The notes under the pieces are model-generated. The model saw only the letters and a list, made by a program, of their open reading frames with translations. It made no database searches and was not told the DNA's origin. From positions 24,512,065 through 24,576,064 of the forward strand of contig JAHRHZ010000267.1 in assembly GCA_024137785.1 (NCBI GenBank): 64,000 nt of DNA. Reading direction: 5' to 3'. Position numbers and translations under genes: made by a program. The stretch comes from Ginglymostoma cirratum. Its lineage: Eukaryota. Every line of letters starts with the position of its first letter. The first letter of the stretch is position 1. Of this stretch, positions 12,738 to 62,460 are shown piece by piece.

Positions 12738-13811
12738 TATCTAATTAATTACATGGATTTAGTGTTCAAAGCTGTAGTATTTTCCTAAGTGAGTGACATC
12801 ACTTCAGAAAGTAATTACTTATTTGTAAAGTGGTTTGAACCTTTAAATATACCTGCATCAAATGAACTGGAGTGATACAAGGTAACAATTCACTCCTAAT
12901 TCCCCACAGGCAATTTATTTAGAAAAATGTTTAAAAAGGTGGTGTTCACATTTTAGTCACTGGGGCAAAACTAAAAGTCCTGGAATACACTACAGGTTGG
13001 TTTTTGAGAAAGAAAAGGATTGATCTAGCAGCGACACACCTTCATCCAATCTTTTTGGCATTTAGTTCCTTTTCAAATTTTCAGCCCTGACCATTTTCTT
13101 TCCTACTCTCAGAAGAAAATGTTTCATTAGTTTCCAAGTGACCTGGCAGAGCATTCTGCCATGTTTTCTGTTTCTGGATGTCCTGCAGACTTCCTATAAT
13201 GAGCAATATTTCAGAACATTCCACATACTGCAAAGCAACCCCACCTAGATGCAATCATTTTCACATCTTGATTTCTATTACCCGTGCAGAAAACATCCTT
13301 AGAACTTGATAAGATACCTGTCACAAAAGTGGATATTGGAAATGAGCCATTTTGTCAACATTGTATCAACAACTGATTCCTTAATTGCTGATCGTAACAT
13401 ACACATAGAAGTAATTTCTTCTACCTGTTGTTGTAACTCGCACAAACATATACTATACCCTGGAATAAAAAAGGGGTCTCCTCAGATGCAGTATTTCTCA
13501 TAAACATTCTGGTACCTTTGTAGGCATCAATCTATTCAATTTCTTTCAACTTCAGAATTCTGTTGGGTAGACACAGATTTAGAGGTACATTTATACTGAG
13601 ATGGGGATTATTGTAATAGGCGTCCAATAATGTCAGTATGTTTAAATTACTACACTATTCAACTGAAACTTGTGACCTACAGAAGATCTAGTTTTGGTCT
13701 GTACTTGAGAACTGTAAATTGTGACTAAATCTAATTTACTTATAATAGATTCAGTTGTTTATGTGTTTTATTTTGACTTACTTTCAAAGACTTGTAAAGG
13801 GTATGATTGCA

Positions 13812-14343
13812 TCAGAGATAAAAGGTACTGCAGATGCTGGAGAATCCGAGATAACAAGCATGGGGCTGGATGAACACAGCAGGTCAAGCAGCATCANNNN
13901 NNNNNNNNNNNNNNNNNNNNNNNNNNNNNNNNNNNNNNNNNNNNNNNNNNNNNNNNNNNNNNNNNNNNNNNNNNNNNNNNNNNNNNNNNNNNNNNNNNNN
14001 NNNNNNNNNNNNNNNNNNNNNNNNNNNNNNNNNNNNNNNNNNNNNNNNNNNNNNNNNNNNNNNNNNNNNNNNNNNNNNNNNNNNNNNNNNNNNNNNNNNN
14101 NNNNNNNNNNNNNNNNNNNNNNNNNNNNNNNNNNNNNNNNNNNNNNNNNNNNNNNNNNNNNNNNNNNNNNNNNNNNNNNNNNNNNNNNNNNNNNNNNNNN
14201 NNNNNNNNNNNNNNNNNNNNNNNNNNNNNNNNNNNNNNNNNNNNNNNNNNNNNNNNNNNNNNNNNNNNNNNNNNNNNNNNNNNNNNNNNNNNNNNNTGAT
14301 GCTGCTTGACCTGCTGTGTTCATCCAGCCCCATGCTTGTTATC
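13812..14343. mobile_element. Young Penelope-like pLTR insertion with inverted arms spanning an assembly gap
   Basis: gataacaagcatggggctggatgaacacagcaggtcaagcagcatca and its exact reverse complement flank the N-run. 15-bp TSD AAGGGTATGATTGCA at 13797-13811 and 14344-14358. Confidence 0.85.
13897..14296. other. Assembly gap (400 N)
   Basis: Run of N. Confidence 1.
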
Positions 14344-15616
14344 AAGGGTATGATTGCAGTTGGCTTTATTTGATTGACAGTCCATCAGGAAGTTTGAGAG
14401 AGGAAGGAGACTGAGCTAGATGAAGTCTCATAATGTTACTTCAAACAAGAAGTATGTAATTGCTTTTCAACAATTAGTGTTACATTGAAGAATAGCACAA
14501 TAAAATATCATTTGTGAAACTTTTTCAGAAGTAAGTATTGAAAAATAAACGTACTATTGAATTGAATCATGTCCACTTACCTGTTTAATGTTAAATTAGT
14601 TTATTGCTTTGTGTTTCTGCATTAATTAAGACTGAACTTTGGTTTGACATAGTGAACACTCAACCAATCTGACCAAAAAAAGTGTTGATATCATTTGGCA
14701 GCATATTCTTCAAAGCTAGAATACGGAGACAGCTGTTTGCTGCTTCTTCTAGTGTCTTGCCACATTTAGTTAGATACTAGGAAGACAAGGTTAAACTTTG
14801 GTCCAGAGGGAATGACACTTATGGGAATAGAATATCTTATCTAAAAACAAAATAATCAAGCAGAAATGTGAATACTTCTGTCATTTCTTTCATACAGTGC
14901 ACATGAACATTTAAACCTAAAATCTGCACAGATGCATTCCTGTCAGTTCCTGAGGATTTTAGAAGTGCTCAGTAAGTATCAAACAGTCACGCAATCATAG
15001 GAAGTTTTTTTTTTGATGCTAGTTTGAGTGGCATAGGTTTAAAATTATTGACCAGCAGAAAATCTGGCCTGCATCATGTTTGCACCAGCAGCATCTAACG
15101 TTTGGTAGCATCACCTCTATTAATAGTGATGGAAGTGACAAAATTAGCCCATGGTGTTTAGTTTTTAATTCACTCATATAATTTCAATAAATATGATTAA
15201 TAATATGTTGACATTTTATGAAATTGTAGAGCAAGACAACCAATGTTTCAAGTGCATAGAAGCAGATAAAGACCCATACTTGAACATTATGCTTGCAAAG
15301 TCACTATGACTCAGGATAAAGAATGTGTGCTTTTGCAAATTTGAATGCTAAATATAGCGCATTTTACCATCACTGAGTGGAATCATGGATCTGAGAAACT
15401 GAGTCAAAAGATCTTGGATCACACTGACTGATTTGCCTAAAGTTTCTAATTTAACTGATAGGTGGCAATCTGCTGATATGTAGAGCAATTGTTGCTCAAA
15501 TGATAGAGATAACACAGTATGCAAGAAAGATTCAGCTATGCTCATACCAATAAAGTTATGACACTCCAAGCATATTTTTCCTACATTGTTCCTTTTCTAA
15601 ATGCATTTAGTTTTGT

Positions 15617-16075: not shown

Positions 16076-16264
16076 TAAAATCTGCCTAACTTGAAGCCAA
16101 AATTCTAATATACAATCTTTGCTGTAAGATGTATAGAATTAAGACAATTATATTAAATAGTATAACTTTGACAACAGCATCATTATGAGATCCAAAGAGA
16201 AACTTTCATTTATACAGGGCCTTCCACAACCACATGATGTTCTAAAGCAGTTCACATCTTATGA

Positions 16265-16361
16265 TTTCTGAAGAAGGGTCCAGACCCGAAACGTCAGCTT
16301 TCCTGCTCCTCTGATGCTGCTTGGCCTGCTGTGTTCATCCAACTCCACACCTTGTTATCTG
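16265..16361 (+). mobile_element. Penelope-like pLTR micro-insertion carrying a hammerhead core
   Basis: 97-bp pLTR segment flanked by an 11-bp TSD ACATCTTATGA at 16254-16264 and 16362-16372. Confidence 0.85.
16268..16295 (+). ncRNA. Minimal type I hammerhead ribozyme motif (PLE-associated)
   Basis: CTGAAGA-A-GGGTC-CA-GACCC-GAAA-CGTC: CUGANGA and GAAA cores, complementary helix II arms, loopless palindromic helix III (ACGT) and a GUC cleavage triplet. Helix I is weak in this copy. Confidence 0.75.
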
Positions 16362-19457: not shown

Positions 19458-21028
19458 TGGGCAATTAAGAATTAGGAATGGGTAATAAGTGCTGACCTGG
19501 CCAGTGACACCATCATCCCGAGGAAAAAGAAGCATGGTACAGAGGGGATGAGGCAACCATGGCTGACTAAGGAAGTCAGAAATAGCATAAAAGCAAAAGA
19601 AAAATCATATAATGTGGCAAAGGCAGTGGGAAATCAGAGGACTGGGAAGCTTACAAAGACCTACAAAGGGCAACAAAAAAAAATAAGGAGGAAGAAGATT
19701 AATATTTGGAAGTGTATAGTAAAATAGGGCAAAGTCAGCATAGTTTCATCAAGGGGAGGTCATGCCTGACAAATCATCTAGAATTCTTTGAGGAAGTAAT
19801 GAGCAGGGTAGACCAAGGAGAGCCAATGGATATTATCTACCTGGACTTCAAGAAGGCCTTTGATAAGGTGCCACACAGGAGGCTGCTGAGTGAGATAAGG
19901 GTCCATGGTGTTAGAGGCAAGGTGCTAGCATGGATAGAAGACTGGCTGTCTGGCAGAAAGCAGAGAGTGGGGATAAAGGGGTCTTTCTCTGGATGGCAGT
20001 CAGTGACAAGTGGTGTTCCGCAAGGGTCAGTGGGGCCACAACTTCTCACTTTGTACATTAATGATCTAGATGAAGGAACTATGGGCATTCTGGCTAAATT
20101 TGCAGACAATACAAAGATAGGAGGAGGGACAAATAGTATTGAGGAGGTGGCGAGGCTGCAGAAGGACTTGGATTAGGTTAGGAGCGTGGGAAAAGAAGTG
20201 GCAGATGGAGTACAACGTGGGAAAGTGTGAGGTCATGCACTTTGATAAGAATAAAAGCATGGACTATTTTCTAAATGGGGAGAAAATTCAGAGGTCTGAA
20301 GTACAAAGAGACTTGGGAGTTCTTATCCAGGATTCTCTCAAGGTAAACCTGCAGGTTGAGTCAGTGGTCAAGAAGGCAAATGCAATGTTGGCATTTCTTT
20401 TGAGAGGACTTGAATATGAAAGCAAGGATGTACTACTGAGGCTTTATAAGGCTCTGGTCAAGCCACATTTGGAGTATTGCATGCAGTTTTGGGCCCCATA
20501 TCTCAGGAAGGATGTACTGGCCCTGGAACTGGTTCAGAGGAGGTTCACGAGAATGGTCTCAGGAATGGAAAGATTAACATATGAGGAATGTTTGAGGATT
20601 CTGGGACTATACTCATTGGAATTTAGACGGATGAGGGGGGATCTAATTGAAACTTTCAGAATACTGAATGGCCTGGACAAAGTGGATGTTGGGAGGAGAG
20701 TCTAGGACCCGAGGGCACAGCCTTAGAATAAAGGGAAGACCTTTTAGAACGGAGATAAGGAGAAACTACTTCAGCCAGAGAGTGGTGAATCTATGGAGTT
20801 CACTGCCACAGAAGGCTCTGGAGGCCAGGTCGTTGAGAACATTTAAGACTGAGATAGATAGGTTCTTGATTATCAAGGGGATCAAGGGTTACAGGGAGAA
20901 AGCAGGAGAATGAGGTTGAAGAACTTATCAGCCATGATTGAATGGTGGGCTGAATGGCCTAATTTCTGCTCCTTTGTCTTATGGTCTTATCGTCTTTTGG
21001 TCTTATCCCATGAATGAATAAAAAAAAT
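19458..21028 (+). mobile_element. Retroposon 3' tail split by the CR1 insertion (pieces 19458-19519 and 21005-21028)
   Basis: gggtaataagtgctgacctggccagtgacaccatcatccc | atgaatgaataaaaaa rejoins into the tail of the family at 10812 and 47805. Confidence 0.75.
19520..21004 (+). mobile_element. Relatively young CR1 LINE with RT domain, internally deleted and frameshifted
   Basis: ORFs 19706-20176 (QHSFIKGRSCLTN...YLDFKKAFDKVPH...SGVPQGSV...YINDL...KFADNTK) and 20139-20705. (ggtcttat)n tail. TSD ATCCC at 19515-19519 and 21005-21009. Confidence 0.95.
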
Positions 21029-21051
21029 TACAGACATTATATAGTAATTAA

Positions 21052-21190: not shown

Positions 21191-21194
21191 GTGT

Positions 21195-23060: not shown

Positions 23061-23067
23061 CAAACAT

Positions 23068-30830: not shown

Positions 30831-30867
30831 GGCATCTTTGTTCCAATTGTTGCTTCTCCATATGATC

Positions 30868-32130: not shown

Positions 32131-33202
32131 TTTTACTATTCAATCCACCAGGGCTTCCAAATCCCTGTCACAAAGGCAAGGCCAATTTATCTTTGTCCTT
32201 ATATCCAGGGCAATTCAGAGGAACCATATAGGACTGTTATGGATGCTCAGTGCTTGACCTCGTGTACAAATATGGTGCCTGTGTCAGGAATCCTAGCAAG
32301 CCCTGGCAGATGCAGAACTTTTGCCTATAGGGCAAAAGGAGGGAGAGGAGGGATATGACAGGTTGGGCATCAGAGAACGGTGGTATATAGCTAATGAAGC
32401 AAGTTTTATGAAATAGCATGGGAAATCTCATAAAGAATCATGCAGGGAACTCCCCCACCCATGATTTTTTTCAAAATTGAGACCTAGCCAATTTCTGGTA
32501 AATATCAGCCCAATGATTGACTGAAATGACTGGTCTAGAATCTATTCATTTCTGTAGTTTATATTCAGAGTAGGCTGGCCCAGGATCTGCACTCCCCTGT
32601 ATATGCAACTCACAGAGAAAGTTCACTTTTTACCTTTCCCTCTATTCCATGGAAAAGGGTATACCAAGACCATTCTACAAACAGTACGCTAAACAAAAAA
32701 AATCTACAAAAGGTACAAAAACATGGAAATCACTGAGAGAAATTATGATATTGTTACAAATACACTTCATATTTACTATTTCATATTTCTTGGAGGACTT
32801 GATTTTTGAAAAATTGTGAAGAAAATTGTTTTGTTTCAAGTTTTCCCTGAGGTGGTGTCTTTATCAGAGGTCATTGAAAGAGCACTGCGGACATAGGAAT
32901 TTTATTTTTCACAAAACCTCCTAGAAATCACTTGACTAGCGATTGCTACTTTCTTTGCTGCAGACTCCTGCAACGGCTGTTTGAATGATGCTTTGTTGGA
33001 GAGTGATTTGGTATTTGGTCTTCATTGGAGGGACAGGAACTCTACGAAGAAGGGCTGCAGACTGATTTCTCACATTTATGAAAATAAGACCCATTTGCTA
33101 AATCCAGAGTGAAACTTGTTTGTTCTTCTGAAAGAATGAATTTCCAACATTGCATTTCATGAGCAAGATTTATCTGGAAGACTCCACAGCCATCTATGCG
33201 TA

Positions 33203-33300
33203 GTTCTGAGGAAGGGTCACTGGACCAGAAAAGTTAGCTCTGATTTTTTTCTCCACAGATGCTGCGAGATCTGCTGAGCTTTTCCAGCAACTTTGTTTAT
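33203..33300 (+). mobile_element. Penelope-like pLTR with a degenerate hammerhead core
   Basis: CTGAGGA-agggtc-actg-gacca-GAAA at 33206-33231, then ...cacagatgctgc...ctgctgagcttttccagcaa. Confidence 0.7.
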
Positions 33301-35870: not shown

Positions 35871-36909
35871 ATACTCATCAACACCCAAATTTGCTGGAAC
35901 CACATTCACAGGCACAATTTTGTTAGCCAAAAATGGGAAACATATGTTCACAATCCTGACTAGATATACAACAGAGTATCTAGCAAGGTAGCCCATTTCC
36001 GCCCAGTACCAATGAGTAAGCCATGAACCTACTACTTTGTTTCTTCAGAAACAGGAGGTTTCATTATGAAAAAAGCCTCCTGTGTTAATGCTGAAGGGTC
36101 TCAATGTTCAACAGCTCATTAAAAAACGCACAAGCAAGGTCAGTCAGACTTCTTGCAACAGGATTATTCCACTATTAGGGCTGTAGGTAGATCAGACCAA
36201 TAGCCTGCCCGTGTAAGACAACCGAAGTGGCATATTAAAGTAAATCTGACCTGAGCACGCAAACATGACTAAACTTTAAAATGCGATTAAACTAAATTAA
36301 CCTAAATGGTTGTGCTACCTTAATGTGGCACCAGTAAAAGAATTCACAGAAGAGTAGACTGAATGCAAAAGAAGAGAAGGTAAAACAATATGAAGGATAT
36401 GAAAGTTGGAAGAATCCTGGGCAATGGAGGCAGCAAACTGGGATCGAAAGTCGGGGGTGGGGGGTGGGAAACGGTGTCAAAGTAATTGTAGCAGTGGGTA
36501 CAACAAAGGGTGGGAGCTGGAAAATAAGTGAGATACACACTGAGATTATGTAGTGTACTGGGGAGAAAGAAAGCTGTGAACTGAATAAGGGATGTTGTAA
36601 GGATGAAGCTGCTCATTGGCATCTCTGTGAGTGTGGGATCAGAAGGAAGAGCAGGAATACCATCTGAAATAGTAAGAGATACGCAGAGGGTGACTTCGAA
36701 GAAAGACAGAATTCAGGCCACCTGCAGTAATGGGGTCAAAATTGTGCTAAAAAGTGGAGAATAGTGGGGGGAAATAAACAAAAGTGAAGTTTACCACAAC
36801 TATGTTGTACAAAATTCAGTTCCAAAAACCTGAGTCTGAGAATGCACAGCACAAAAGGGAAGGTCCCAGAGGTGATTGCACATGAAGAAAGCAAACACAT
36901 TCTAAGAGA

Positions 36910-36981
36910 AACGAGATAACAGGTGTAGAGCTGGATGAACACAGCAAGCCGAGCAGCATCAGAGGAGCAGGAAAGCTGGCG
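36910..36981 (-). mobile_element. Penelope-like pLTR micro-insertion
   Basis: 72-bp pLTR segment with 7-bp TSD TAAGAGA at 36903-36909 and 36982-36988. Confidence 0.8.
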
Positions 36982-37049
36982 TAAGAGATGCCATACAAAC
37001 AGAAACTGGAAATATAGTTTGTGTCAGCTCTGTTTAAATGACAGAAACA

Positions 37050-41402: not shown

Positions 41403-41563
41403 CATCACACAGTATCCAGTGTAATTCCATCGCATAATACCCAGGAAAATCCCAACAACAGCACCCAGTGTGATCCCATCACACAGTACCTTGTGTGATC
41501 CCAGCGTGAAGTACCCAGTGAAAGTCAATCACCTAGTATCCAGTGTAATTTAACCACCCAGTA
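41403..41563. repeat. Minisatellite, ~25-bp unit x ~6.5
   Basis: Consensus CATCACACAGTACCCAGTGTGATCC; example units catcacacagtatccagtgtaattc and catcacacagtaccttgtgtgatcc. Confidence 0.8.
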
Positions 41564-45240: not shown

Positions 45241-45267
45241 CTTCTCCCTCTTTTTTATTGTTTCTTC

Positions 45268-46050: not shown

Positions 46051-47804
46051 ACTGATGGTGGCAATGCCCTTTCAAAATTCTAATCATACAAGGTCAAATT
46101 CTATTTCCATCAGCATCTCTATCTTGTTGTCACCTTTGTTCATTTTGCCTCTCAATCTGCAATCCACAAGGAATGCCTACTTTAGTGACTGTATTTGGAG
46201 GGTGATTTGTGGAGAATTCTGGAAGTTAATAAAATCTTCAACTTGTTCTACGTTAAAGATCTCTAGAAATCACCAAAAAGTTGTACAATCAAACAATAGC
46301 AGGCAGAAATCAATCAGCAATCAAACTAGAAGAACTATACGTTACACTAGTAGCTGGTGCTTTCTGCTGCTGAATGTGAGTTTTAAGACATGGCATTAAC
46401 TGGAGCATGGGGCTCAAAAATTGCTGCCATCAATTCTGTATTACATTTGGACTGACATCACAAGCTGCCTACTCTTCATACTTTTGGCGGATGTTCCCTG
46501 CAAGACTAAAATGGCCTATAGAACAGTTTACACCAGATGAATGCGGCTCTCCTAATAATGGAAAATCAGGCACGGAGGAGTCAAATTTTGCAACGAGCTG
46601 CTTATTTTTTTTAACCAGTGTCTTTGTCTCCTACATGCAGGTTGTCCATAATCATTTTATCTGCAGATTAAAAGGCCTCCATCATTATGCCAGTTCTCCC
46701 TTGTGTATATAAGTCTCACTGTTTCTAGAAGGCTCTGCTGCTCATGTGTCTCCCTTTTATCCTCTGGATACTGCTGTAATTAATTAATGCATAGAGCATT
46801 CTTGCGACTTATGACTATTTGAATATACAAGTTATTTTTATTTTGAAAATTGCACCTCCTAACTTTGCCTACTTGTGTATTCAGAACATTATAAGCATCT
46901 AATGTATGCAAACAAAGGTTTGCTACATACATTTGACTGTATAACAACACCAGAAGAGATCATTTGTATTGGTTGATGATGAACAATGTTTCAGAAGGGA
47001 CTAAACATTTATTTTATATTGCAAATTCTGCTTTTTTTTAGAAGGCAAAACCTATTCATTTAAGTCTCTGACCAGTAATAAAGTCTGGGTAAATTGTAAC
47101 TTACAATATTCATCAAAAAGAGATCTACTGCATCAGAAAAAGGCAAATAAGTTAAATTTCATGTAGTCCATCCCTAATAATTCCCTAAAATTGTATTTTA
47201 AATTCATAGTTGTAAGGATTTACAACTGTGTTAAAACCATACTTAAGAATACAAAGTGACGGTAATACAACCAAAATGGCCCTTCACACCCTAATTGTGT
47301 CTCCCAATCAGAAATAAAGGGGCTTTTACATTCAGTACAGTTAAACATGCATTTCAAGGGCTTTTACAAGGGCATATTTCAATAAAACCCTGATCCTTAT
47401 AAATGGAATCTCTCAATTCCTTATTGCTTGTGGACCATACATTCTAGGAAGATTAAAAAAAACTTGATCTTTGCTGTTTATTATTTTATATAAACTCCAT
47501 CACGGTGGAAGTTAAGAAAGTGCAGTCAGTTTCCACTAGGCCAGATTTTCAATGCAGGATGACTGGGATCCTGAAACTGGATGAATTTTGGGTCCTGACA
47601 CTATGCCTGAGCGGTCTCACTATTGAGACATGTTTATAAAATATAAGTCATCTAATAGGCCAGGTGGCAAGCTTGGCACCAAATAGGTGGGTGTTTCTGC
47701 CTGTTCAGCTCCAGCAACAAAGGCAATTGGCTGCTGATGCCTTTGCCAACTAGCTCCAGCAGTTCCTCAGAAATGGAAGAAGGGGGCAGCAACTTTGCAT
47801 GGCA

Positions 47805-48400
47805 TCATTTGTCATGGGATGTGAGCGTCTCTGGTTAGTCAAACCTTTATAGTTCATCACTAATTGCCCTGGAGAAGATGGTGGTGAGCTGTCTTCTTGA
47901 ACCGCTTTGGGGTATATAGACACCTACAGTGTTGTTAAGAAGAAAGTTGCAGGTCCTTGACCCGATGACGATGAAGGAACGGTGATATAGTTCCAAATCA
48001 AGATAGTGTGTATCTTGGATGGGTTTTGGTGAGTGGTGATGCTCTCATGTATTTGCTATACTTATCCTAGATGGTAGATGTTGTGAATTTGAAAGTGCTG
48101 TCGAAGACACTGTATGAGTTGTTACAGTGCATTTGGTAAATGGTACACAGTGCTGCCACTGTGCATCTCTTCTGGAGGTAGTGAATATTTAAGGTGGTGA
48201 ACGGAGTGGAAATCAAACAGATTGCTTTGTCTTGGATTGTGTTAAGCTTCATGACTATTGCTGGAGCTGCACTCATCCAGGTAAGTAGTCAGTACACCAT
48301 CAGACTCCTGACTTGTGCCTTTGTACATTGTGGGCAGGCTTTGTGGAGTCAGGAAGTGAGTTACTTGCTGCAGGATTCCTAGCCTCTGACCTCTCTTGTT
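47805..48400 (-). mobile_element. CR1/L2-group LINE (second family) 3' portion
   Basis: Minus ORF MSAAPAIVMKLNTIQDKAICLISTPFTTLNIHYL...VAALCTIYQMHC; homologous to 10812-11945. Confidence 0.85.
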
Positions 48401-48483
48401 AATACTACTTTTTATGATTGTAATTAAAATTTATGACAATAGCTCCAGTTTTGTGACACTTTAGTTATTTGGGATTGATTGAT

Positions 48484-48872
48484 GGATCTGGGTTTGTTCT
48501 CCTTAGAGAAGATAATGTTAAAAGAATATTTGACAGAATTATTCAAAATCATGAGATCTATACAGAGTAGATAGCTGATAAAACTGTTCCCATTGGCAAA
48601 CAGTCAAGAACCAGGGGACATTGACTTAAAATTGTTGTCAAAAAGAGCTAATGACAACCTGAGAGAAAAAAATGTTTCTTTCCAAGGAGTGGTTTTGGAT
48701 CTTGAATGCACTGAGAGTGCTCTGCATCCAGATTTAATCATGGATTTCAAGGAGAATTGAAGAATTAAATGAAGACAAAACAATAGCATGGCTACAAAGA
48801 AAGGGCAAGAGAGTGGGTCTAGCTGATTTGGTCTTTCATGGAGCTCAGACAGAACAACAGCCTTACTGTTCA
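48484..48872 (+). mobile_element. CR1 3' fragment
   Basis: ctgggtttgttctccttagag (LGLFSLE)...ttcaaaatcatg (FKIM)...actgttcccattggc. Confidence 0.7.
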
Positions 48873-50923
48873 ATGATGGTGTTTATAGTCCACATGACTT
48901 TTGTGCATCTAACCCTATCAGTGTGTCCTCATATGTTTTTCTCCCTTATGAACCTATAGCTTCCTCTTAAATGCATCTAGCAATTTACCTCAACTACTCT
49001 TTGTGGCAATAGGTTTCATACTGTAACCACTTTCTGAATAAAGAAGTTTATCTTAAATTTCTTTCTTTTAGTCGTGGCCATCTTATTTCTTATACATATG
49101 ACTTCTATTCTGGTATCTCCAACAATGTTTATCATAAAAATATTTATTCTTCCTTCCCAATTTTCTCTACTTCTACCAAGTTACCAATTCTTTTTGATGA
49201 GCGTGGGTATATGATAAAGAACGTACTTCAAATGAATTTAAAATTTCAAATTGTAATTGAGTGGGGTATGGCAGGGTGAAGGAAAGAAATGTTAAAACAA
49301 AAATCTTACTCAAAAGGTTAAACCATTAGCAGGATAAAATTTTTCTTCCCTCCCCAAAAACGACTTCAGGTGTTTGGCTGGCAAAATATGTTGGCTGGCA
49401 GCTCAGTGGTCCCAGTGGGAGCTACAATCTATTTTGAGGGTCAAGCCTCATTAGCATTAGGACACTGGGTTGCGGCCAATAATCGAATGCCCCAGGGCAG
49501 CTAATTACCAGGGGATGAGTGTCCCTGTCGAAAAATGTAACATGTAAGGCACACCATTGATCTGCGTGTGGAAAAAGCAGCATCACACTAACTATGAAAA
49601 GTGTACCAGTTATTCTGTCACATGAGTACCAGGTGTGAAAACGGTGATATTGCATTGATTTTGGATTTTTATCAGGTTAACTACATCCACGTTTGAACAT
49701 ATATTAAGATAAAAATACCTTTATGACAAGAGATTATTCATAAGATCCTGGAGTTTTTAATCTCAAATAAAAATGCAACCAATAGGATAACATTGTGAAC
49801 GCATTTCCTAAAAAGATCATTAGTGCTCAATGTCAGGATGCAGGAGGCCCATTAAGGTTTGCAATAAACATCCAGGGGCTTTATTTTATGTCCAAATAAT
49901 TAAATAATAAAGAACATTCTTAAGGCTTGTGTTAATGTCCATTGATCTGCCATGAATGCATTAACAGTGCCTCTAGGCTGTCCAAGACATCAATATTCTT
50001 TTATTTGTTAGCCATTCTGTTACATACTTCTCCACACTAGCACTTTTCAGGGTAACACCTCTTTCAAGGAGACTGTTCTTAAAGGGGAATGTTGAAAATT
50101 CCCTCAGAGCTGCTCCTGCATTCCTGTTGTAACATCACTGAGATGCAAAACTGAAAGCAGCTCTGAGAAAATCCTCACTAAGGAACTTAAACGTCTGAAA
50201 CGAAGATGGGTTGATTGTCAAATAAAGGTCACCCACTGAAAGTTACCACATGTGATGAAGTAGAGATTGATTTAAGCCTCAAATATGCCTCACATAATTC
50301 AAATTGTAAAAATAACAAGGGAAAGAAGACACTGGTGGAGAAGTCTATAGGCCTCCCAACAGTAACTATACTGTAGTAGACAGAATAAGTCAGAAGATAA
50401 TGAAGGAATATTAAAAAAAGGCAGTACATTAATCATAGATGACTTTAATCATCATACAGATTGGTAAAAGCAAACTGACAGAGGTAGCCATGAGGGGGAA
50501 TTCAAAGAATGTATTTGGGAAAGCTTAGTTGAATGAAATGTTGCGAATGCAACCAGAGATCAGGCTGTTTTAGATTTGATAATGTGGAATGAGGCAGATT
50601 TAATAAATTATTCCAGAGTAAAAGATTCCCTAGAAAATAACGACCATAATATGTTAGAATTTAGTATTCTTAATGGAAGTGAGAAACTTGGGTCAGGAAC
50701 AACTGTGCAAAATGTAAATAAGGATAATTACAGAGTTATCTGGAGTGGACAGGGAAAGGAGTTTAGCAGAAAAGACAGATTAGGAACAATGACTGATGCT
50801 TACAAAATAGTTCATGATTCATAACAAAGTTATAGCCCTGTGAGAAAGAAGGGTTTGAGGAAGGAGATAAGCTAACTATGGTTAACCAAGGAAGATAAGG
50901 ATAGCGTTAAATTGAAAGAAAAA

Positions 50924-51552
50924 TGGTGTATAGGAAGACATATGGCACACTTACCGTCATCAGTCAGGGCATAGAGCATAAAAATTGGAAAGTCACTTTG
51001 CAGCTCTGTAGAACTTTCGTTAAGCCACATTTGGAATATTGCATACAGTTCTGATTGCCACACTACCAAAAGAATGTGGAGACTTTGGAAAGGGTTCTGA
51101 AAAGATTTACCTGGATATTATCTGATTTGGTGGATATTAGCTCTGAAAAGATATTGGACAAACGTGGTCTGTTTTCACTTGAATGGCAGAGGCTAAGGGG
51201 CAACCTAAAAGAAGTTTACAAACTTATGAGAGGCATGGATATCAGAGTCTTTATCCCAGGGTAGAAGTGTCAATTACAAGGGAACGCAGACTTAAGGTTA
51301 GAGGGAAAGTTTAAAGGAGATTTGAGAAGCAAGATTTGTACACAGAGGGTGGTAAGTGCCTGGAATGTACTGCGAGAGGACATGGAAGAAGTTATAACAG
51401 CAATGTTTAAGAGACATCTTGACAGATACATGAATAGGCAGGAAATAGAGGGATATGAACCATGTAGAGGCAAAAGGTTTTTAGTTTAGAAAGGTGTCAT
51501 GTGTTGGCATAGGTTTGGTGGAGCAAAGGTCCTGTTCCTGTGCTGTGCTTTT
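50924..51552 (+). mobile_element. CR1 3' portion nested in the longer CR1
   Basis: PHYQKNVETLERVLKRFT...RGLFSLEWQRLRGNLKEVYKLMRG with its own tail cctgttcctgtgctgtgc. The host rejoins as ...aaattgaaagaaaaa|acatacaatgtg. Confidence 0.85.
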
Positions 51553-52454
51553 AAAAAACATACAATGTGACAAACATTAGTGATGAGTCAAAGGATTGGA
51601 ACAGTTTTAAAAGCCACCAATGAATGACCATAAAAAGATAAAGTGGGAGAAAATAAATTCTGAGGATAAACTAACAAAGCACCATCAAGGTGGTCAACAA
51701 GAGCTTATTTAAATACATACAAAGGAAGAAACAGGTCAAAGTGACCATAAATTTCGTACACAATGAAGCAGGTGAAATAATAATGGGGAACAATAAATGG
51801 CAGGGGAGTTGAATAAATAATTTGCATCAGTATTCATGGTAAAAAACATTAATAAAAGACTAACCAATCAAGGGGCAAAAGTGGGGAGAAAATAAATGCA
51901 ATAATTATCGCTAAAGAAAAGGTACTAGGGAAACTAGTGGAGCTAAGGACCTATACAATCATTGGACTTGATGGGTTGTATCCTAGGATTTTAAGAACAG
52001 AAATAACGAATGCACTGGCAGTAATCTTCTAAGCATCCTTCTGGAAAAGTCCCAGAAGAATGGAAAACTGCCAATATAAAACCCATATTCAAAAAAGGAA
52101 GGAGAGGAAAAAAGGCAACTGTAGGTCAGTTATCTTAACATCTGTTATTGGGAAATTGTTACACTTCATTATAAATGATGTAATAGGAAAGCATTTAAAA
52201 ATACAGAATATTATCAGGCAATTTCAGTATGGCTGCATGAAACGGAAAACATGTTTGACAAATTTGCAAGAAATCTTTGAGGAGGTACTATGTCAGATAG
52301 ATAAAAAGGAACTAGTAGATGTAATATATTTGAGTTTTCAGAAGGGTTTGATAAGGTTACATGTTAGGCTACGTAACAAGATAAGAGCCCATGGTGTTGA
52401 GAATGGTATATTCGCATGGATGAATGGTGGTGCCACAACGTACAATTATTTACT

Positions 52455-52504
52455 ATATATTATATATATGTATGTATATATATATATATTTTATATATAT
52501 ATAT
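52455..52504. repeat. (TA)n-like microsatellite within the CR1 RT
   Basis: tatatattatatatatgtatgtatatatatatatattttatatatatatat. Confidence 0.9.
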
Positions 52505-53469
52505 GGATGATGGAAGTGAATGTCCTTTCATCATGTTTGTGGATACACAAAAGTAGGTGGGAAGTCAAGTGGTGAGGATGAAACAAAAAGTCTACAGAGG
52601 GATACAGACAGGTTAAGTAAGTCAGCAGAAACTTTCCAGATGCAATAAAATGTGGGAAAAGGTGTGATCATGCACTTTAGCAGGAAGAATAAAGGAAATA
52701 ATGTTATTTAAATGGAGTAAAGTTACACAAGGCTGCAGTATAGAGGGGTTTCAAAAAGCTGGCATACAAATTCAGCAGGTAATAGGGAATGCAAGTGGAA
52801 TATTGGCCTTTATTTCAAGGCCATATAAATATAAATTGTCATATAAATGGAGAAAACTTCTTAAAACTATTCAAGATACTAGTAAGACCATGCCTAGAAT
52901 ATTGTGGTGAGTTTTGCTCCCTTTATCTAGCAAAGTATATATTGGCATTGAGGCAGTCTAGAGAAGGTTCATTTGATTCATTCTAGGTGTGATCGATTTT
53001 CTTATGTGGAGAGATTGAGTACATTGGGCTCATGCTCATTTGAGTTTAGAAGAATGAGAGGTGGTCTTATGTGTTTCAATAAGATTCCTAGGAGCTTGAC
53101 AAGATAGATTTACAAAATTGTTTCCCCTTGTAGGAGAGTTGACGACAAGAAAGCATCATCTCAGATGAAAGGGTCTCTCAATTAGGATAGACATAAATTG
53201 GAACTTATGCTCTCAAAGAATACTGAATCTGTGTAATTCATTACCATAAAAGGCTGCAGAGTCTGGGCCGCTAAGTATACTCAAGGCTGAGATAGATTTT
53301 TAATCAGTAAGTAAATAATAGTGATGAGGAAAAGGCAGCAAAGTGAGTTGCAGGTTATCAATCAGCCATAATGGCATTGAACGGTAGAACAGAATTGTTG
53401 GCTCAACTGGCCTACTTATGTTCCTATGTCTTGTGATCTTATGGATGCAATGGAAGACCACAAACTGCA

Positions 53470-53597
53470 AAATAAAAATCAAAAGAACTGCAGATACTGT
53501 GAATCAGAAACAAAAACAGAAATTGCTGGAAAAGCTCAGCAGGTCCGCAGTATCTGTGGAGAGAAATCGGAGTTAATGGTTCAGGTCCAGTGACCCT
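53470..53597 (-). mobile_element. Penelope-like pLTR
   Basis: aagaactgcagatactg...cagaaattgctggaaaagctcagcagg...gagttaatggttcaggtccagtgaccc; reverse complement of the 33203 family. Confidence 0.75.
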
Positions 53598-53619
53598 AAG
53601 TTCCTTGTCAAGTCACACA

Positions 53620-53822
53620 TTGTCCTGACTTATAGGCATATCACCGCGCCTTCATGGAGTTAAAATCCTGAAATTCCTTTCCTTACAACTCTCTATGTGG
53701 CCCTACACTCCAAGGGTTGTAATGATTCACAAAGGTCACTCACCATTCCCTTTTCTAGTGCAATCATGGATGGGTAATAGATGTCAACTTCGTTAGCAGC
53801 ACTCGTATCCCAAACAAATAAT
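53620..53822 (+). mobile_element. 3' end of the second CR1/L2-group family
   Basis: tcctgactt...aaaatcctgaaattcc...ctcacca...ggatgggtaatagatg...atccca. Confidence 0.6.
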
Positions 53823-54559
53823 AAATTACCATGTGGCAGAACTTGAGTGCCAAAATCTAGGTCATTGTTCATCCAAGACTGCTTCATTGTTAACAATCTT
53901 AAGGCACTATTTAAAGAAGAAAGTCTGTCATTTGTTTTTCCTATGAGATCTTTGAGTGCGAGAAAGGTGGATGACTCAGCATCAATGCAGGGGATTATGC
54001 ATTTCCTACATAAAGGTTGCATTGCTTGATCATTGATAATCATTTTAGGCTCAAGTTTGGATGAAGATCTACAAAATTAATTCCTCTGGGGTATGGTTGT
54101 AGAGTGGTTCAGTTGAAACTCTTCTCCTGTTATTCGTACCGAATGAGATCCTCAGCACCTATAAATCTTTCCTGCTATTTCACCATTTCACTGTGGTCAT
54201 CTGGGATTTGTTTTGATTATGTTGTGTATTTCCCCCTTAATCAGCCCTTCCCAGAAGACTTACTAGTGGGTAAGGGCACTGGGGATCGTGACGCAGATTG
54301 ACTGTTTGATGGAGCAGTTTGTCTTTTTCTAGTCCATTAGTTTGACATTCTTGTATGATGGAAAGATATCAGATTGCTAGGCTGGTTTGAGTAGCTATGC
54401 ACAACCACAAGTTGAGTATTTGAGTACACGGAAGACCATGCTACCAGATTTCCCTCATGTATTTAACTGTCACTTGCCGAAACTGACTGGACTCAAATCT
54501 AAACTCTTACTGTAAACTGTTGTACTAATAAACAGGGGACCAGACATAATTCAATGCTA

Positions 54560-55400
54560 CATGCTCATTTGTGTACCGGTCAGTAAGATCATGAAGGGGA
54601 TCCCTGACTGAGAGAAGACAGCATTGATTTTTATTTTAATGGGAAGATTGGGCAGATAAACAGAATGAACCGCATGACAGAGTTTGTAATTTCATTTATA
54701 TCATCATACATTGACTACAGTATGACCTAATTTGTGTCTCTCACTAATATGTTTCAACGAGCTCTAATATATTCATGAGTTATTATACATAATTATAAGG
54801 TACTGTCAGAGATACACAATTATTCTATCCATGCAAACTTTTCTTTCCCTCTTTGAAGACTGTTGATCTGATCCTATAGGAATATTCTCTTTAAAACTGA
54901 TGTATTCTCCTAGCTGTTGGAGACACCGCATTGATGTCATTATTATCAACGTGAATTCCGTTTTTCTGAAACTCTCAGGGGAATGTTAACCATGTCAGAC
55001 AAAACAAGGTGCCGAAACCAAATTAATCTCATCACTCTGACAGGAGGGAAGTTGGATTTAAAACAGTCCCATCTCTCTGAGAAACAAGCCTTCTTTTAGC
55101 TCAGCCACGTTTGAATAATTAATTACCAATATCATTATGTAGTCATTACATGTCATAACAATATATCTGAGAGGTGAAACTTAATATTCTGAACTGAGCA
55201 CGGAGGAAGGCTGCACAGAAAATGCCAATTAAATATTGATACAGACTAATTGGGCACAGGATTTATGACACATATTGCCTTTGTTCTGCTTTTCAATATG
55301 TGAACTCTTCAAAGTACAAAGTCCTCTCATATCAGCTCTCACAGACTCATCATGTTTGTACATTTAACCCTCAAAAATATGACAGGCAAGCGGAGTTTTA
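54560..55400. promoter_or_regulatory. Candidate conserved non-coding element cluster
   Basis: Repeat-free, with many TAAT/TAATTA, ATTTATGAC (Hox/Cdx-like) and TGACAG (Meis) motifs and some retained CpG. Confidence 0.4.
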
Positions 55401-56173
55401 AAAAGGTGAGCAGAAACTTGCTATAAATAAAGATTGACTGCTTTGTTTCTACTACCTTGTTGTAGCCCTCAGGACCAGGGACATTTAGAATGCTGGAGAC
55501 AGGTCAGGATTAGGGATTACATACCCTTAATTGCAGTCAATTTGCAAATTCATTGGCTATTCATGCACTTTGTGTCTGCTGTGTAAATGCACTTCCACGT
55601 CATAGTACGTTGATACTACACACAAAGCTAGAAAGCAATGTGATTACATACACACAGGGATCTATAAAGACAGCAAGGGGAAATAGACATCTCTGAACAA
55701 TAAATGTAATACATGAGTAAAATAGCAAAAGTATATCAATGCGAAACCTAAACTGTCTCAAACAGAATCAAGAATGTTTATTTGAATGGGGAAATTGAAA
55801 AGAAATACATTAGCATAGAATGAATACAATGAAAAGCAACAAAAATGTACAAAAGTGAAAAATTACAAACATTATGCAAATAGTTATGTTGTAGTTTCTG
55901 GAAAACAATACTGCATGTTAACCAGAAAAGTATAAGCCACTCAGAAGATAAGTGAAACTAAGTAACTGACAGGCCAATGAAAGTTTGTTCCATATTGCAA
56001 AGAGAAGCTGGCGCTATATCATTTGAGACATAAACCTGAGTAAGCATGAACATTTCCTGAAATACAGCTAGAAGAATGTACAGAATTTCAAAAGTTGGGT
56101 TTGGAAACCTTCATCTTATCAGAGGAGGGGTGGCAATTGAACATTATGCGACACAAAATGGACTTTTGTTCCT

Positions 56174-56300
56174 TGAATAAATAGGGAGAGAGGGGGAGTC
56201 AAGTTTTCTTGCTCCTATGATGCTGCTTGGCCTGCTGTGTTCATCCAGCCCCATGCCTTGTTATCTCGGATTCTCCAGCATCTGCAGTACCTTTTATCTC
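56174..56300 (+). mobile_element. Penelope-like pLTR insertion with an inverted 5' piece
   Basis: 14-bp TSD GGACTTTTGTTCCT at 56160-56173 and 56301-56314. The first ~24 nt (aataaatagggagagaggggga) match 63532-63553 in the opposite sense to the rest of the insert. Confidence 0.85.
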
Positions 56301-57049
56301 GGACTTTTGTTCCTGTGTTTTGGGTGCAAATTGGCCTCCTAACCCTTGAAAATGTTGCCTGAGATGTGCATTTCCAGTGGTAATGGGATATAACCACATG
56401 TGCCTAATGACTGCTGCAGTATGAACAGCAGGGAGATTATGATATAAATCTGGGTGCAAAGCTGATTTGGTGCCAGCACTGTCTTTTCAAATGCAGCCTA
56501 TGGTCTGCCTTAACCTCGTATAGCTGAGCACAAGGCTAAATGATGCAAAAGATGCCCACCAGCACTACTTAAAATTATCACAATCTACCCATAGGTTAGC
56601 CACTGGATTATTTCTTCTAGCAATCCTGTGTATTTTTGGAACTGTCCTATATTTGTCTAAAGTTTCAATGACCTACAGAGCGCGGCCTGACTGATACCAA
56701 AGGACTTTGTTGGTGAGTTAAAAGCTAGTGCTGAAAGTTGCTTCCACACATGTGTGACTTGACAGGTTTTCCTCTTGGCAATTAAGCATGACTGTGAGAA
56801 TGACCTGAAACAAGTTGCTAGAAGAGGGAGGAAGAGGGAGAAAATGGCACTCTGGAGAAGGTCACATCCGCTAGGATTTTAGGCAGCAATTCACTTATTT
56901 CAATTTCAGTATTAATCAAACATATTCAATTTATTTAAGAAACCATGACTAAAATCTGCCAACTACTGCAGCCACAACAGACAACAGATACCTCAAGGCA
57001 GAGCTTGGTCTACATTGCCTGCAGTAAGCCCGCACTATCCATTTAAGAT

Positions 57050-59225
57050 TTGGACCACAGAGAGGTGCTTCTTCATTTCCAGTTCTTTTCTGTTCCTTCC
57101 TTTTACAAGTGTCTTACCTTGCAAGAACAAGAAAAATGGGTTGGGGGTCTGATGTGGATATTTTATCAACATTACTTTCAGTTTCCAACCTTCTCTCATC
57201 CACACATTATCTATCTCTGTTTCTACCCTTTCTGTCATCTGCTTCTTAGCCTATCCTCGAACTGAAGACAATCAACGAATATTCACAGTAAGCACATTGT
57301 CACCCATAGCCATCTCTACTTCAATCCTTCACACCCTTTTCCCTTTAAGAACTCCATTTTAATCATCATTTCCCTCTATCATTTCTTTTCTGATGATGAA
57401 ACATTCCATATTGGTGCCTACTTTTTCCTCAACAGAGGACACCCCTAACCCGTCTGAAGAAGAGTCATATTGGACTCGTATTGTTTACCCTATTTCTTTC
57501 TCCATGTTTCCTTTGGCATTTTCTTTGATTGTTTCAGGCTTCCAGCATCCATAGAATTTTTTATTTGAGTGTGTAACTACCGCTTCTCTTCCTTGAAGAA
57601 ATTCTGCTCTTGTCTCCAATATGATTTCTCTTTCTTTCTTTTATCTTGTTCACCTTCATTGCTTTCTCTTTCCCTCAAGTGTTTGATAAAATGTTTGCCA
57701 AAACTCTCTTGCACAGCCACATCTCCCTTCTCAGTGACTGCCTCCAGCTCTGCATTGCCCCATTTGTATTCCAACTCAAGTTCAACCCTGCATGTTTTGA
57801 ATCCACCCGAGATTACAGTTATCTCTGGATCTGCAACACTCCTCAGGCAAGTGGTTCTGCTGCATCCTGAGATCCACTCTCAGTGCCCAGAGCTGCCACA
57901 TGCACACTCTCGAACTCTCTCTCCATCAGCACTGCTTCAAGAATCTCTTTGCTGTCCTGGTCTCCAGTCCCATTTCATTCATTGTCTCATTCAATGGCTT
58001 AAAATGAAACTTTTTCTTTTCCTTTCAGATGTAAAGGAACACAAGTTCCAAAAAGAAAAGTTACAAAGAAAGGTCATATCAGACTCAAAACATTAAGTGC
58101 TTTCTCTCACCACATTAGCCGCCAGACTTGCTGATGTTCTCCGGTTTCCGCTCTTTTCCCAGATTTTGAGCATTTGTAGTAAATCACTTTTATTCTCCAA
58201 CACTACGGTTAACATTCCATTTGCTGTACATTTGCATTGACATATTCTCCTTCCTGCCAGAACAATGATAGGGTTCCCCTTGCTCCCTTCCCCTTTCCCC
58301 TTCCACAGTACCCTAGCATACGCATACTCAAGTAATGATCCTTCACCATTTACACTACCTTCAGCACAATACAGCCATCAAACATACCATTCTGTCCCCT
58401 CACTTCATCGTTCTGAAGGAATTGCTTCCTCCGCAATACCCTGAGCTATTTCTCCTTGACCCTGAACAATGACATGCCTTCCCACAATGCCTTTCATCCG
58501 AGCATAGGAGATGCAACACCTACTTTTTTACCTCCTCTTTTCTCACTATTAAAGTCCAAACACTCCTTCGTGGTGAAATGGCTATTTATTTGTATGTCCT
58601 AGAATTTAATATTTTGTATTCACTGTTCACAATGTGGTCTGCTCTGCAACAGAGAGCTCAAATGCAGATTGGGCAACCACTTTGTAGAACATCTCAAGTT
58701 TAATTGATAACATGACCCTGAGCTCTGGTGACCTGTCATTACAATTCTCTCATTGGGGCACATGCTGACTTCCCTGTTTTCAGCCTCCTGTTGTGTTCCA
58801 ATAATCTAAATACAAGCTCAAGGAACAGCAGCTCTTCTCTCAAGTAAGCACTTCTGAGACCCCTTCTGCACCCAGGTTTCAGTTCAACAATTCTTTCTCC
58901 ATGGATGCTGTGATTTCCAGCAATTTTGGTTTCAACTCAAATTACAATATTTGCACATGCTTTGCTTCCTTTTAGCTTTGAAAGTTTTAGTTTTAACTCC
59001 TTTTCTCCTGTTTATACTTTTGAATGACTAATATTTATCAAATCACACCTCCTTTTCTGTATCTTTTATTGGCTTGTTCCTGCTTATTTTGGCCATACAC
59101 TATGAACCTTTATTGTTATTTAACATCACCTGTCTTCAATTCTATAGCAGACTTTCTCCTCCTGCTCTTTTTTGCATCCTTCTTATCTTTTACAAATTCT
59201 GATGGAAGGTCATCAACCTGAATGG
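57050..59225 (+). mobile_element. Decayed Penelope-like retroelement mosaic (RT, N-terminus, GIY-YIG, pLTRs)
   Basis: RT-like FINITFSFQPSL and STNIHSK...SH...NPSHP..FKNSI (57160-57360); N-terminal QVFDKMFAKTLLHSHISLLSDCL; GIY-YIG NLIFCIHCSQCGLLCNRELKCRLGNHFVEHL (58603-58695); hammerhead remnants at 57454 and 59199. Confidence 0.8.
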
Positions 59226-59599
59226 TTGGGCTGACCTTTACCAGCCCAAGTGGACTACAAGATAATGGGAAGTTTCCCAATGGTGAGCTACAGGGCAGAT
59301 TGGCAGCCTGCTTCATGGAGTTAATCTGTATAATCAAGGTCCCACTTAACAGCAACAATACCAGTCCTCTAGCAATTTGCCAATAGCAGGGGATCCTTGC
59401 CCCGTGCAGAGGCTGTGCATACTTCCTCAAATATGCCTTTTTGAGGCAGTCTAGGCCAAGTGCTGCCATTTGCCCCACAAATGGGCTGTAGGCACCAGAA
59501 GCTCAATGATCCACCCTGCAGGGGTTTATCCTGATACAGCACAACGTACTGGTCCTGAACATCCTGCATTTAATTTTTTTTTACCTGTGTGAGAACACT

Positions 59600-62460
59600 T
59601 CTATTTTCGGAAACACTGACCTTGTAAGGTGAATCCTCATTATGACTTATCCAGTAGATTCACTGGCCTCTCCTGTCTTTTCTCTCAAGGATCTGCAGGG
59701 CTTGTTTGGTCTAGTGCAGTAGAGGAAAATGACTTGTTAGTCCAACGAGAAGAGCATGTCATCTCAAACAAGATGTACTTTATGCGTGACGGTGACCAGG
59801 TTAATATGATAGACATCATTACATTGTGTATGAGGAACACCCAGATGGTATGCCTTACAAATTCAAGATCCTGATCTGTTTTACCACCAACTGTTTATAA
59901 TATCAAAATAGTGGGTGTGGTTTAAGGCATTAAAGCTTTCAGCCTGTTACATCTGTACATCCTCCTTCAATCTTTTTTCCAAAATATAAGTATTTATACA
60001 TTTGTATAAATAATCACTTTTACCACTAGCCCAACGTCCAGTAAGTCTCTCCTCCACAAATTCAGTGTCTGGAGGTTTCACATTTCTCTCAGAATCTATT
60101 CTGTTAAGACTTGGAAGATTGATAGGACATCTAATGGAAGACCATTTATTTTAATTCTGTTCCTGACAGTACAAGGTCCACAAGTCTTTTTAAACTGGAG
60201 GACATTCTACTGCTTGGATTTCCTTCACTGAGTATGTCTTTACTGCTAAAACAGGTAATTGCTTCATTATAATATCTGAAGGAGTTTTAATGTCATGAAT
60301 TTCCATTGAGGAGGCCTGCCCGCTTAAACAGACACTTTCTTGATACAGTAGCTTGGATCTCCAAACTAGGCAATTATGTTTGACTGTGTCCTAAATCTGT
60401 CAAGATTGGTTGTCCTGTCTCAGGTTGCCTTCCACGGGATTGTACACACCCAAACTGCAACCTGTATGACCAGAGTTCTTTTCTCAATCTGCTAGTAAAT
60501 CAATGTTGAAGAGTGTAGATCCTTTACTTCAATCTATTTACTAGGTTGGACAATTTCATTCGCCCTCAGTGGATGCATTACTGTAAATCCAACATGTCAC
60601 CTCCTCGGGTTTGTGATTTGAGGATTGTTTCTTGCTCTACGTAATCTCTGTCACTGTCATTATCATCGAGAATTCATTCTGTGAATGTAAAAAAAAAATT
60701 TACTTGGACTTTACTGGTTGCAACACCTGACATTAGACTCAAACCTGTCAACAGTGTTGCACTCTGAATTACATCATTTCAAGATAATCAAGGGGCCCAA
60801 GCAAAATATATTCCTAATTAGCTTTTGATTGCTTACATTCTATTGCTGATTCTTGCAATCTGACTCTTCAGTGTTGATTGCAATGGATAATATTTCTGCC
60901 AATCCTGCATAGTCAGGTTTCCACCTTGCTGACAGTTATGAGACAAATTTGCTGATGCCAATATAGTTAATCTCACTGGTATCAGTCTTTATTTGGGTTC
61001 CAGCATGAATCTCAGGAGCCTTACGTAATCGTCTAATGGCTGTCCTTTTGCAGGTTGCTCTATAACTTGCTCTTCAGTGACCAAATGATTTTTGATTTGT
61101 TTTGTTCCACGTTTGGCTATTCCTTGACCATTTGTCCCATGACTGGTTGTTCCTTAATCAGTGGTTTCTCAACTTCAACCATTTGGCTTCTTCCCCTATT
61201 TGAACAAGATTTACATTCAAAAACGCATTCATGCTTATGTGTGCTAGTTCTTGATTGTGAAGTATATATAAATTCTCTACCACATACCACTCCTTGTGCT
61301 GGTGTATTTCTAGCAACATATCTTTAACTGCTATACCTCTTGAATCATGTAGTTGCACTGTATCTAAGCTGTAAACAGTGTTTCTTCAATCATGCTACAC
61401 TGTCCTATAATATGATGATGCTTGCCCCTGTATAAAGTTTATAATTAATGAAAAGTCCATTGACATGAATATCCTCATCAAAAATATACAGTCTACGTTA
61501 TTTATTTCCATAGGTCTGCCTTTAGCTTTTCCTCTATTTTAGTCTGTTCTACTTCATGAATGTCTTTGTGTGAGTTGCTATTTGACTTCTTGTTGCTCTG
61601 TGGCTGCATCCTATTTTGACACATTTTCTGAAAATGACCTATTGCTTTACAGATAAATCACTATTTTTTAAAAATGGACACGGTTCATACCTGTGAGGTT
61701 TCCATGTTCCACAGGACTGATGCCTGTGCTCTTCACTGCACTATTTTTGCATGTATGTCTTCAGGGGTTGTGCACTTTAACCATTGAACTAATTCTTCTG
61801 ATTCCCAGTGATAAGGTTGATCTTCTTTTAGTTTGACCAGTGTTGTTTCTGATCCTCTGCTTCACTCACCATCGGTATTGTTTTCTCTGGAGTCACATCA
61901 TCTTTTAGCTGTATTAAATCTGACAAAGGCTCAGCAGCAATTCCAATAACAATCTGTCTCTTAGTATTCTAACTTTAAATCTCAACAAGCAGTTTTCCAC
62001 TAACCTTTAGAGATAATTCATTAAATTATCTGTGGATTCCCCTGCATATTGAACATTTAGAGTAAATATTTAAAGAATACTTTTTGTTCTGAGATTAAAA
62101 ATTGTTAAAGGGTTTACCAACTTCAGCAAATGCAGAGATAACAAGGTGTGGAGCTGGATGAACACAGCAGGCCAGCTCCACACCTTGTTATCTTGGATTC
62201 TCCAGCATCTGCAGTACCTATTATCTCAGCAAATGTAGCTTTTTTAAAAAGACACTGTATCCAGCTATAATGTCATCAGATGTCCTCCCAATTGTGTAGA
62301 AAAATGAACTTACTTGTTCAGCTGCTGACTTAGCACAGAATTTGGAAGCAATTCTGTATCTTAAGAATTATTTTTGTCAAAATGTCCAACACTGTTCTAG
62401 TTGCCCTTCCTCTGAATGGATATCTTCCTAGACATATTATTTACGCTACCATCTCTTGCC
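59600..62460 (-). mobile_element. Decayed Ty3/Gypsy gag-pol
   Basis: Gag FLRYRIASKFCAKSAAEQVSSFFYTIG (~62290-62370); zinc knuckle *FICKAIGHFQKMC (61618-61660); protease VNGLFINYKLYTGASII (DTGA to YTGA, 61414-61464); RT-connection INYIGISKFVS*LS; integrase ALMP*TTP. LTRs not identified. Confidence 0.8.
62133..62225. mobile_element. Penelope-like pLTR hairpin micro-insertion inside the Gypsy gag
   Basis: Perfect 22-bp inverted arms agataacaaggtgtggagctgg / ccagctccacaccttgttatct. 10-bp TSD TCAGCAAATG at 62123-62132 and 62226-62235. Confidence 0.85.

Follow-up and report, generated by a model that had tools for sequence, protein, structure and literature searches.

Short, non-coding insertions of a pseudo-long terminal repeat (pLTR) in the genome of Ginglymostoma cirratum probably arose when reverse transcription ran off the capped RNA of an autonomous Penelope-like element (PLE), leaving dead-end copies of its first 97 or 130 nt. 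The insertions were followed in a 64,000 nt stretch of assembly GCA_024137785.1 (contig JAHRHZ010000267.1, positions 24,512,065-24,576,064), hereafter the window, and in a sample of the same genome. Run-off complementary DNAs (cDNAs) are the likely origin because the 5' ends pile up at an initiator-like word, two-armed copies carry a tail on one end only, long and short copies are intermixed in a tree and the seams of fold-back copies are unique. The inserts are probably not a new class of element. Numbering within the pLTR follows the sense strand, with the C of the hammerhead's CUGA box as +1.

Abundance and size of pLTR copies

The sample comprised 160 separate 10-kb stretches at round-number positions of large contigs, with 0.90 of 1.6 Mb readable. 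It contained 99 pLTR elements, 30 of which abutted N or an edge and 69 of which were complete. The density is approximately one element every 9 kb, so that the genome, should the sample be representative, would hold about 4-5 x 10^5 copies. Complete elements were at most 270 bp in 57 cases and exceeded 1 kb in seven, and 51 of the 69 consisted only of sequence downstream of -8. Duplication scores of at least 10 were obtained for 30 of the 69, with 25 of these 30 at 13-17.

5' ends and the candidate transcription start

The 5' end could be read in 97 arms. Of these, 41 began within -4 to +5, where 6.6 were expected from the density of 5' ends at +6 to +40 (Poisson p about 1e-19), and 72 never extended beyond -8. 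With this pile-up at one point the ends depart from a smooth truncation curve, and the excess of discrete short forms raised in a preliminary description of the window is borne out. The 5' ends pile up at the A of CCATTTC, which lies 4 nt ahead of the hammerhead core; this word is initiator-like, the initiator consensus being YYANWYY. TATTTA was found 31 nt upstream of this A in 69 of 82 contiguous copies. The base directly 5' of the A was G at 14 of the 18 exact starts and at 19 of 36 junctions overall (26% expected); in L1, an additional G is a sign of cap copying (PMC11702581). The capped RNA would thus start at -3, the A of the initiator. Hammerhead cleavage as the origin of the 5' end was rejected, only 4 of the 97 arms starting near the cut site (+26 to +32).

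As a replicate, a second pLTR family was used, which is older and frequent in the sampled stretches. Its upstream sequence differs and its initiator reads TCAGTT; a CATATAA-type box lies about 30 nt upstream in five of seven contiguous copies, with variants at -32 and -33, and the match to the template reaches back to at least -2 in 21 of 29 junctions. Both families break at the same place, an initiator behind a TATA-type box.

The pile-up could alternatively reflect ordinary 5' truncation of a read-through RNA that starts elsewhere, with a strong stop of the reverse transcriptase (RT) past the hammerhead or at a C-rich tract. Strong 5' truncation is usual in PLEs (PMC8557442), and 25 of the 97 arms run upstream, by up to 2.4 kb, with others stopping at +6 to +67. 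A structured RNA should, however, halt RT at its 3' side, where just the four arms noted above begin; the second family has no C-tract at this position and shows the same breakpoint, 30 nt behind a canonical box, and the excess of G would be unexpected. Truncation is considered an unlikely source of the fixed end.

3' ends, tails and two-armed copies

The 3' ends were concentrated at two sites 33 nt apart, which together held 113 of 121 ends: +87 to +101 (site 1) in 50 cases and +122 to +128 (the tail site) in 63. Their positions correspond to those of two internal RT start sites by which the tail of an Anolis element is defined (PMC11167929), and they may be the counterparts of these. Twenty-four head-to-head pairs were present in the sample; after leaving out two with an end in N and one local duplicate, a tail was found on exactly one end in all 21 remaining two-armed copies (chance at most 0.5^21). 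These include one copy aligned to +107, with the extra matches falling within its duplication, and one with a short arm ending at +64. Two further fold-backs, filtered out earlier and with a second arm ending at +31 or +39, had one tail each, and copies 1 and 5 of the window obey the same rule. A wider set of pairs yielded four with tails on both ends, all of them internal pLTRs running on into the open reading frame (ORF). That a tail occurs on one of two inverted pLTRs was already known (PMC3846280), and the Anolis protein extends both target strands and is a predicted dimer (PMC11167929). Twin arms were closer to each other than random arms (median rank 0.18), a comparison in which age is a confounder.

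The fold-backs L147:8385-8544 and L156:4455-4678 have 17-bp duplications, and their second arms end at +31 or +39, just past the hammerhead cut site and not at site 1. In L011 (about 1600-1645), L078 and L190:3685-3951 the fold-back arms enclose fragments derived from the ORF start, the RT region or unrelated sequence. Such captured pieces suggest short template jumps before joining.

Relationship of short and long copies

In a tree built from 57 short arms and 26 long ones, 22 changes of label were needed, compared with 22.1 after shuffling, and the between-minus-within distance gave p = 0.8. Three sets of identical rows mixed short and long labels. The 32 fold-back seams were all distinct except for two local duplicates, and the spread of fold-back units as a whole was rejected in this sample because the seams are unique. 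L114:1303-3594 and L100:2491-3243 are local duplications of a segment already holding a fold-back, in which the duplication or seam is seen twice. No head-to-tail retrozyme arrays were found in the window, and the short copies of the sample were single or head-to-head. Short copies have neither the upstream TATA-like box nor the downstream ORF start, the latter needed for templating in the Anolis element (PMC11167929); a downstream promoter element could remain.

The preliminary description had proposed, as a possibility, a non-autonomous class made of pLTR only, resembling short interspersed elements (SINEs) or retrozymes and mobilised in trans. Such a separate, self-propagating class would account for the discrete size excess. 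PLE derivatives of this type and tandem retrozymes are known (PMC8557442; bioRxiv 10.64898/2026.07.22.740005), short copies are plentiful in RNA, as passengers, and in the tree 13 short arms group together with weak support. The absence of clustering, the differing seams, the lack of tandem arrangement and the loss of promoter and ORF start nevertheless leave the proposal unsupported, and it is regarded as improbable. The short copies display no lineage of their own, no diagnostic changes and no fixed structure of the kind that marks a SINE-like family, within the limits of the 88 columns of the tree.

Use of the 5' boundary as a splice acceptor, with the inserts copying spliced RNA, is very improbable: the intron of D. 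virilis Penelope ends at helix I of the hammerhead (PMC4209133) and CAG stands just before the core in the second family, but the first family has no AG at the boundary and no common upstream exon was found at the junctions of either family. Later deletion from longer elements is scarcely credible, since although long copies exist, intact duplications flank 23 of the short-only elements and the 5' end position is shared, unlike the outcome of random deletion.

Structure of the pLTR and its autonomous partner

The pLTR carries what reads as a minimal type I hammerhead motif, of a kind described for PLEs (PMC4209133), with a predicted cut site after +28. The first 3' end lies near +93 and an optional tail reaches about +126; in longer copies the tail leads into an ORF with its ATG at +167. 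Open frames of more than 700 aa, extending from RT to endonuclease (EN), close in the same pLTR as that of the short inserts. Pfam identified RVT_1 in both copies scanned and GIY-YIG in one of the two (E 1.7e-4, slightly under the cut-off). A partner with RT and GIY-YIG that ends in the same pLTR, sought by the preliminary description, is therefore present, and its view that the inserts are true insertions made by a PLE is upheld.

Between RT and EN the linker reads CNRRKCYTC, which fits the motif CX2-5CxxC; in the available portion of PMC8557442 this motif is a feature of Neptune and Nematis that Penelope and Poseidon do not share. To judge from its sequence, the partner is an EN+ PLE of Neptune/Nematis type. 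An assignment to Poseidon was dropped on account of the linker. A PDB sequence search with the RT-EN protein gave no matches. An Rfam scan of the window returned no hammerhead family and four matches at chance level, and the stability of the leader fold was not unusual (z = -0.22).

Young copies, L019 among them, have an upstream frame of about 28 codons (+46 to +129) that passes through the pLTR and stops at the end of the tail, before the main ATG. A one-base variant disrupts this frame in some copies.

Insertions in the window

The pLTR copies of the window and their associated features are as follows.

13797..13811, + strand: left target-site duplication of copy 1, 15 bp
13812..14343, no single strand: copy 1, head-to-head with two arms, young subfamily, centre unreadable
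14344..14358, + strand: right target-site duplication of copy 1, 15 bp
16254..16264, + strand: left duplication of copy 2, 11 bp
16265..16361, + strand: copy 2, single arm from the candidate transcription start to RT start site 1 (97-nt run-off form)
16268..16295, + strand: putative minimal type I hammerhead core of copy 2, read from the sequence by the motif in PMC4209133
16362..16372, + strand: right duplication of copy 2, 11 bp
33202..33300, + strand: second-family copy that begins with the A of its initiator, 4 nt ahead of the hammerhead core
36903..36988, - strand: copy 3 (36910-36981), flanked by 7-bp repeats, a duplication within chance range
37084-37268 and 53506-53597: second-family copies, hammerhead pLTR
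56160..56314, + strand: copy 4 (56174-56300) with its 14-bp duplication
62123..62235, no single strand: copy 5 (62133-62225) with its 10-bp duplication
63413..63567, - strand: sixth copy, without a clear duplication
63504..63510, - strand: initiator-like CCATTTC in the sixth copy, its A being the 5'-end pile-up point
63533..63539, - strand: TATA-like TATTTAT in the sixth copy, first base 31 nt upstream of the candidate start A at 63508

The preliminary description had placed five insertions between direct repeats, and all five repeats are exact at those coordinates, measuring 15, 11, 7, 14 and 10 bp for copies 1 to 5. When left and right flanks of different elements were paired as a control (n=150), a score of at least 10 was reached by none and a score of at least 7 by 13, so that the duplications of four copies are above chance and the 7-bp repeat of copy 3 is weak. 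The claim that every repeat is a target-site duplication (TSD) holds for those four and is doubtful for copy 3. The sizes of 72-127 bp given for the four fully sequenced copies were correct (97, 72, 127 and 93 bp for copies 2 to 5); the middle of copy 1 reads N and its content there is unreadable. A single young family had been described: the pLTR is indeed shared, but the copies belong to at least two subfamilies, with 88-98% identity to a young natural copy.

The copies are not uniform in structure. Copy 1 is a fold-back: its left arm, on the minus strand, extends to the tail site and its right arm to the site without tail. Copy 5 is a fold-back too; of its two arms, both very short, one reaches site 1 and the other the tail site. 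The core of copy 2 comprises candidate parts in the order CUGA..GA, stem II, GAAA, the palindromic ACGU and the GUC cut site; the final GA of its left duplication can be read too as a G plus the putative first transcribed A. Copy 3 spans about +25 to site 1. In copy 4, a 24-bp inverted piece of the TATA region upstream of the pLTR start (56174-56197) precedes an arm that runs from +26 to the tail site (56198-56300). The sixth copy, absent from the earlier list, extends from -62 to site 1 and thereby retains the putative promoter. In the second family, the copy at 37084-37268 is folded back, and only one of its arms bears a tail.

Two copies had been said to interrupt older elements, a putative DeuSINE and a Gypsy gag. 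This stands for copy 2, whose host is an older repeat; of 11 paralogues, three have both flanks joined at matching spacing and free of an insert. The Gypsy gag was not confirmed as a host: six translated frames flanking copies 3 and 4, of 30 planned, gave no Pfam match. In a genome search, the sequence to the left of copy 3 found no match other than itself. The sixth copy sits in an older repeat, with an inverted insert-free paralogue near 57591-57978. Elsewhere in the window, fragments of reverse transcriptase frames, presumably of CR1/L2 type, lie at 19703-20705 and 52033-52575, and a degenerate tandem array with a 25-bp unit occupies 41403-41573.

Proposed template jumps and mechanism

In 15 of 30 loci containing the ORF start, an ORF fragment was joined directly to a pLTR beginning at the pile-up point, a proportion that is not a genome rate because the loci were selected by query. 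The ORF fragments end anywhere between about +460 and +1350, and between the 5' and 3' pLTRs of these jump products there are 2-6 differences over about 90 sites. Junctions of this form are what a jump from the 5' end of the RNA to an internal position would be expected to leave.

Under the run-off model, RNA polymerase II would start at the initiator A, 31 nt behind the TATA-like box and 4 nt before the hammerhead core. Reverse transcription would begin at two internal sites near the pLTR-ORF junction, as known in Anolis and matched here by position, so that only a short leader lies between the priming site and the cap. The endonuclease would make a staggered cut of about 14-16 nt, and both target ends would be able to prime, site 1 being used by one and the tail site by the other. 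Most cDNAs would run off at the cap or stop sooner and join the other end or the other cDNA, producing single arms and fold-backs, with a minority jumping to another template and continuing to form tandems. Short copies, having neither the upstream box nor the ORF start, would be unable to propagate further.

A fuller cycle is tentatively proposed, as a possibility short of an expectation. Synthesis would start some 100-130 nt from the capped 5' end, run off as strong-stop DNA and have to jump elsewhere on an RNA to copy the ORF, with a dimer priming two strands at the two start sites. A jump onto the 3' pLTR would rebuild the pseudo-LTR, the template possibly being ended by the hammerhead cut, with a leader overlap of ~31 nt. 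The several hundred thousand mini-inserts would then be failed strong-stop products, and the ORF-fragment/pLTR junctions misdirected jumps.

A number of observations weigh against the run-off reading, beginning with the arms that extend upstream or stop at +6 to +67. The G excess derives mostly from query-selected young loci (15/24, accounting for 15 of the 19 Gs), with 3/11 in the sampled stretches; in the second family G is found at -2 in 5/8 and at -3 in 1/7, and several Gs could also reflect microhomology with the joined partner. TATTTAT is an imperfect TATA box, and the promoter of the D. virilis element is internal and TATA-less (PMC2377424). RNA reads on the pLTR-ORF junction gave no start peak in the one informative run, which was apparently unstranded and was swamped by copies within host transcripts, 82% of reads continuing into other sequence; a second run yielded 18 reads. 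N makes up 44% of the sampled bases, often within elements, a possible source of bias. The tree is built on 88 columns, and its group of 13 short arms is unsupported. Four read runs over window positions 45000-64000 showed no empty allele, single-copy flanks being barely covered.

Comparison with known systems

Hammerhead-bearing PLE fragments, both short and opposed, have already been published, as have tails and inverted pLTRs; truncated and inverted-pLTR insertions with tail and TSD are on record for EN+ PLEs of Neptune/Nematis type (PMC8557442, PMC3846280). In the open-licence literature no paper was found that links the 5' end of PLE fragments to a capped start or to a strong-stop cycle, which is weak evidence of absence. 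No obvious mechanism for rebuilding the pseudo-LTR was seen in the available portion of PMC2377424; regeneration of pLTRs and tandems, the tail on one end and the purpose of the hammerhead are treated as open questions in it and in PMC11167929. Three predictions follow from the fixed ends described here: that the RNA has its capped start at -3, that each target strand uses one start site and that jumps depart from the 5' end of the RNA.

The element resembles EN+ PLEs of Neptune/Nematis type in having RT and C-terminal GIY-YIG in a single frame, a Cys-rich linker, a pLTR with a minimal hammerhead motif, a tail of 33 nt at one end, an inverted 5' copy and a variable duplication, and its arrangement of TATA-like box and initiator in the pLTR resembles that proposed for Adineta Pen2a (PMC8557442, PMC3846280). 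The traits of an EN+ PLE found here are the RT-EN frame linked to a pLTR, the hammerhead motif, the one-end tail, the inverted copy and the variable TSD. One feature is neither described nor explained in the available accounts of PLEs of this type: about three quarters of the arms end at a single fixed point or short of it.

In LTR retroelements, minus-strand strong-stop DNA arises by priming near the 5' end of the RNA, run-off at the cap and a template jump. The likeness of the inserts to it lies in function only, as they would be target-primed, with no tRNA or integrase. In L1 twin priming both target ends prime, as they would here, whereas the two arms here copy the same segment and not adjacent ones (PMC11702581). 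Both comparisons are analogies of function and not of membership.

As in the Anolis Poseidon element (PAc) in vitro, two adjacent internal RT starts appear to define the tail; PAc cuts and extends both strands and its protein is a predicted dimer (PMC11167929). PAc belongs to another clade and its ORF begins within the hammerhead, unlike the ORF here at +167 (PMC11167929). In the available portion, that study models a multi-copy read-through RNA, maps no start site, assigns no start site to either strand and saw no strand difference (PMC11167929). Non-LTR retrozymes are likewise pLTR-derived, hammerhead-bearing and non-coding (bioRxiv 10.64898/2026.07.22.740005). Caution is warranted before such pLTR fragments are annotated as SINEs or retrozymes: retrozymes form head-to-tail arrays with two or more hammerheads (bioRxiv 10.64898/2026.07.22.740005), whereas the copies described here are single or head-to-head, in many cases have no hammerhead and constitute no lineage of their own.

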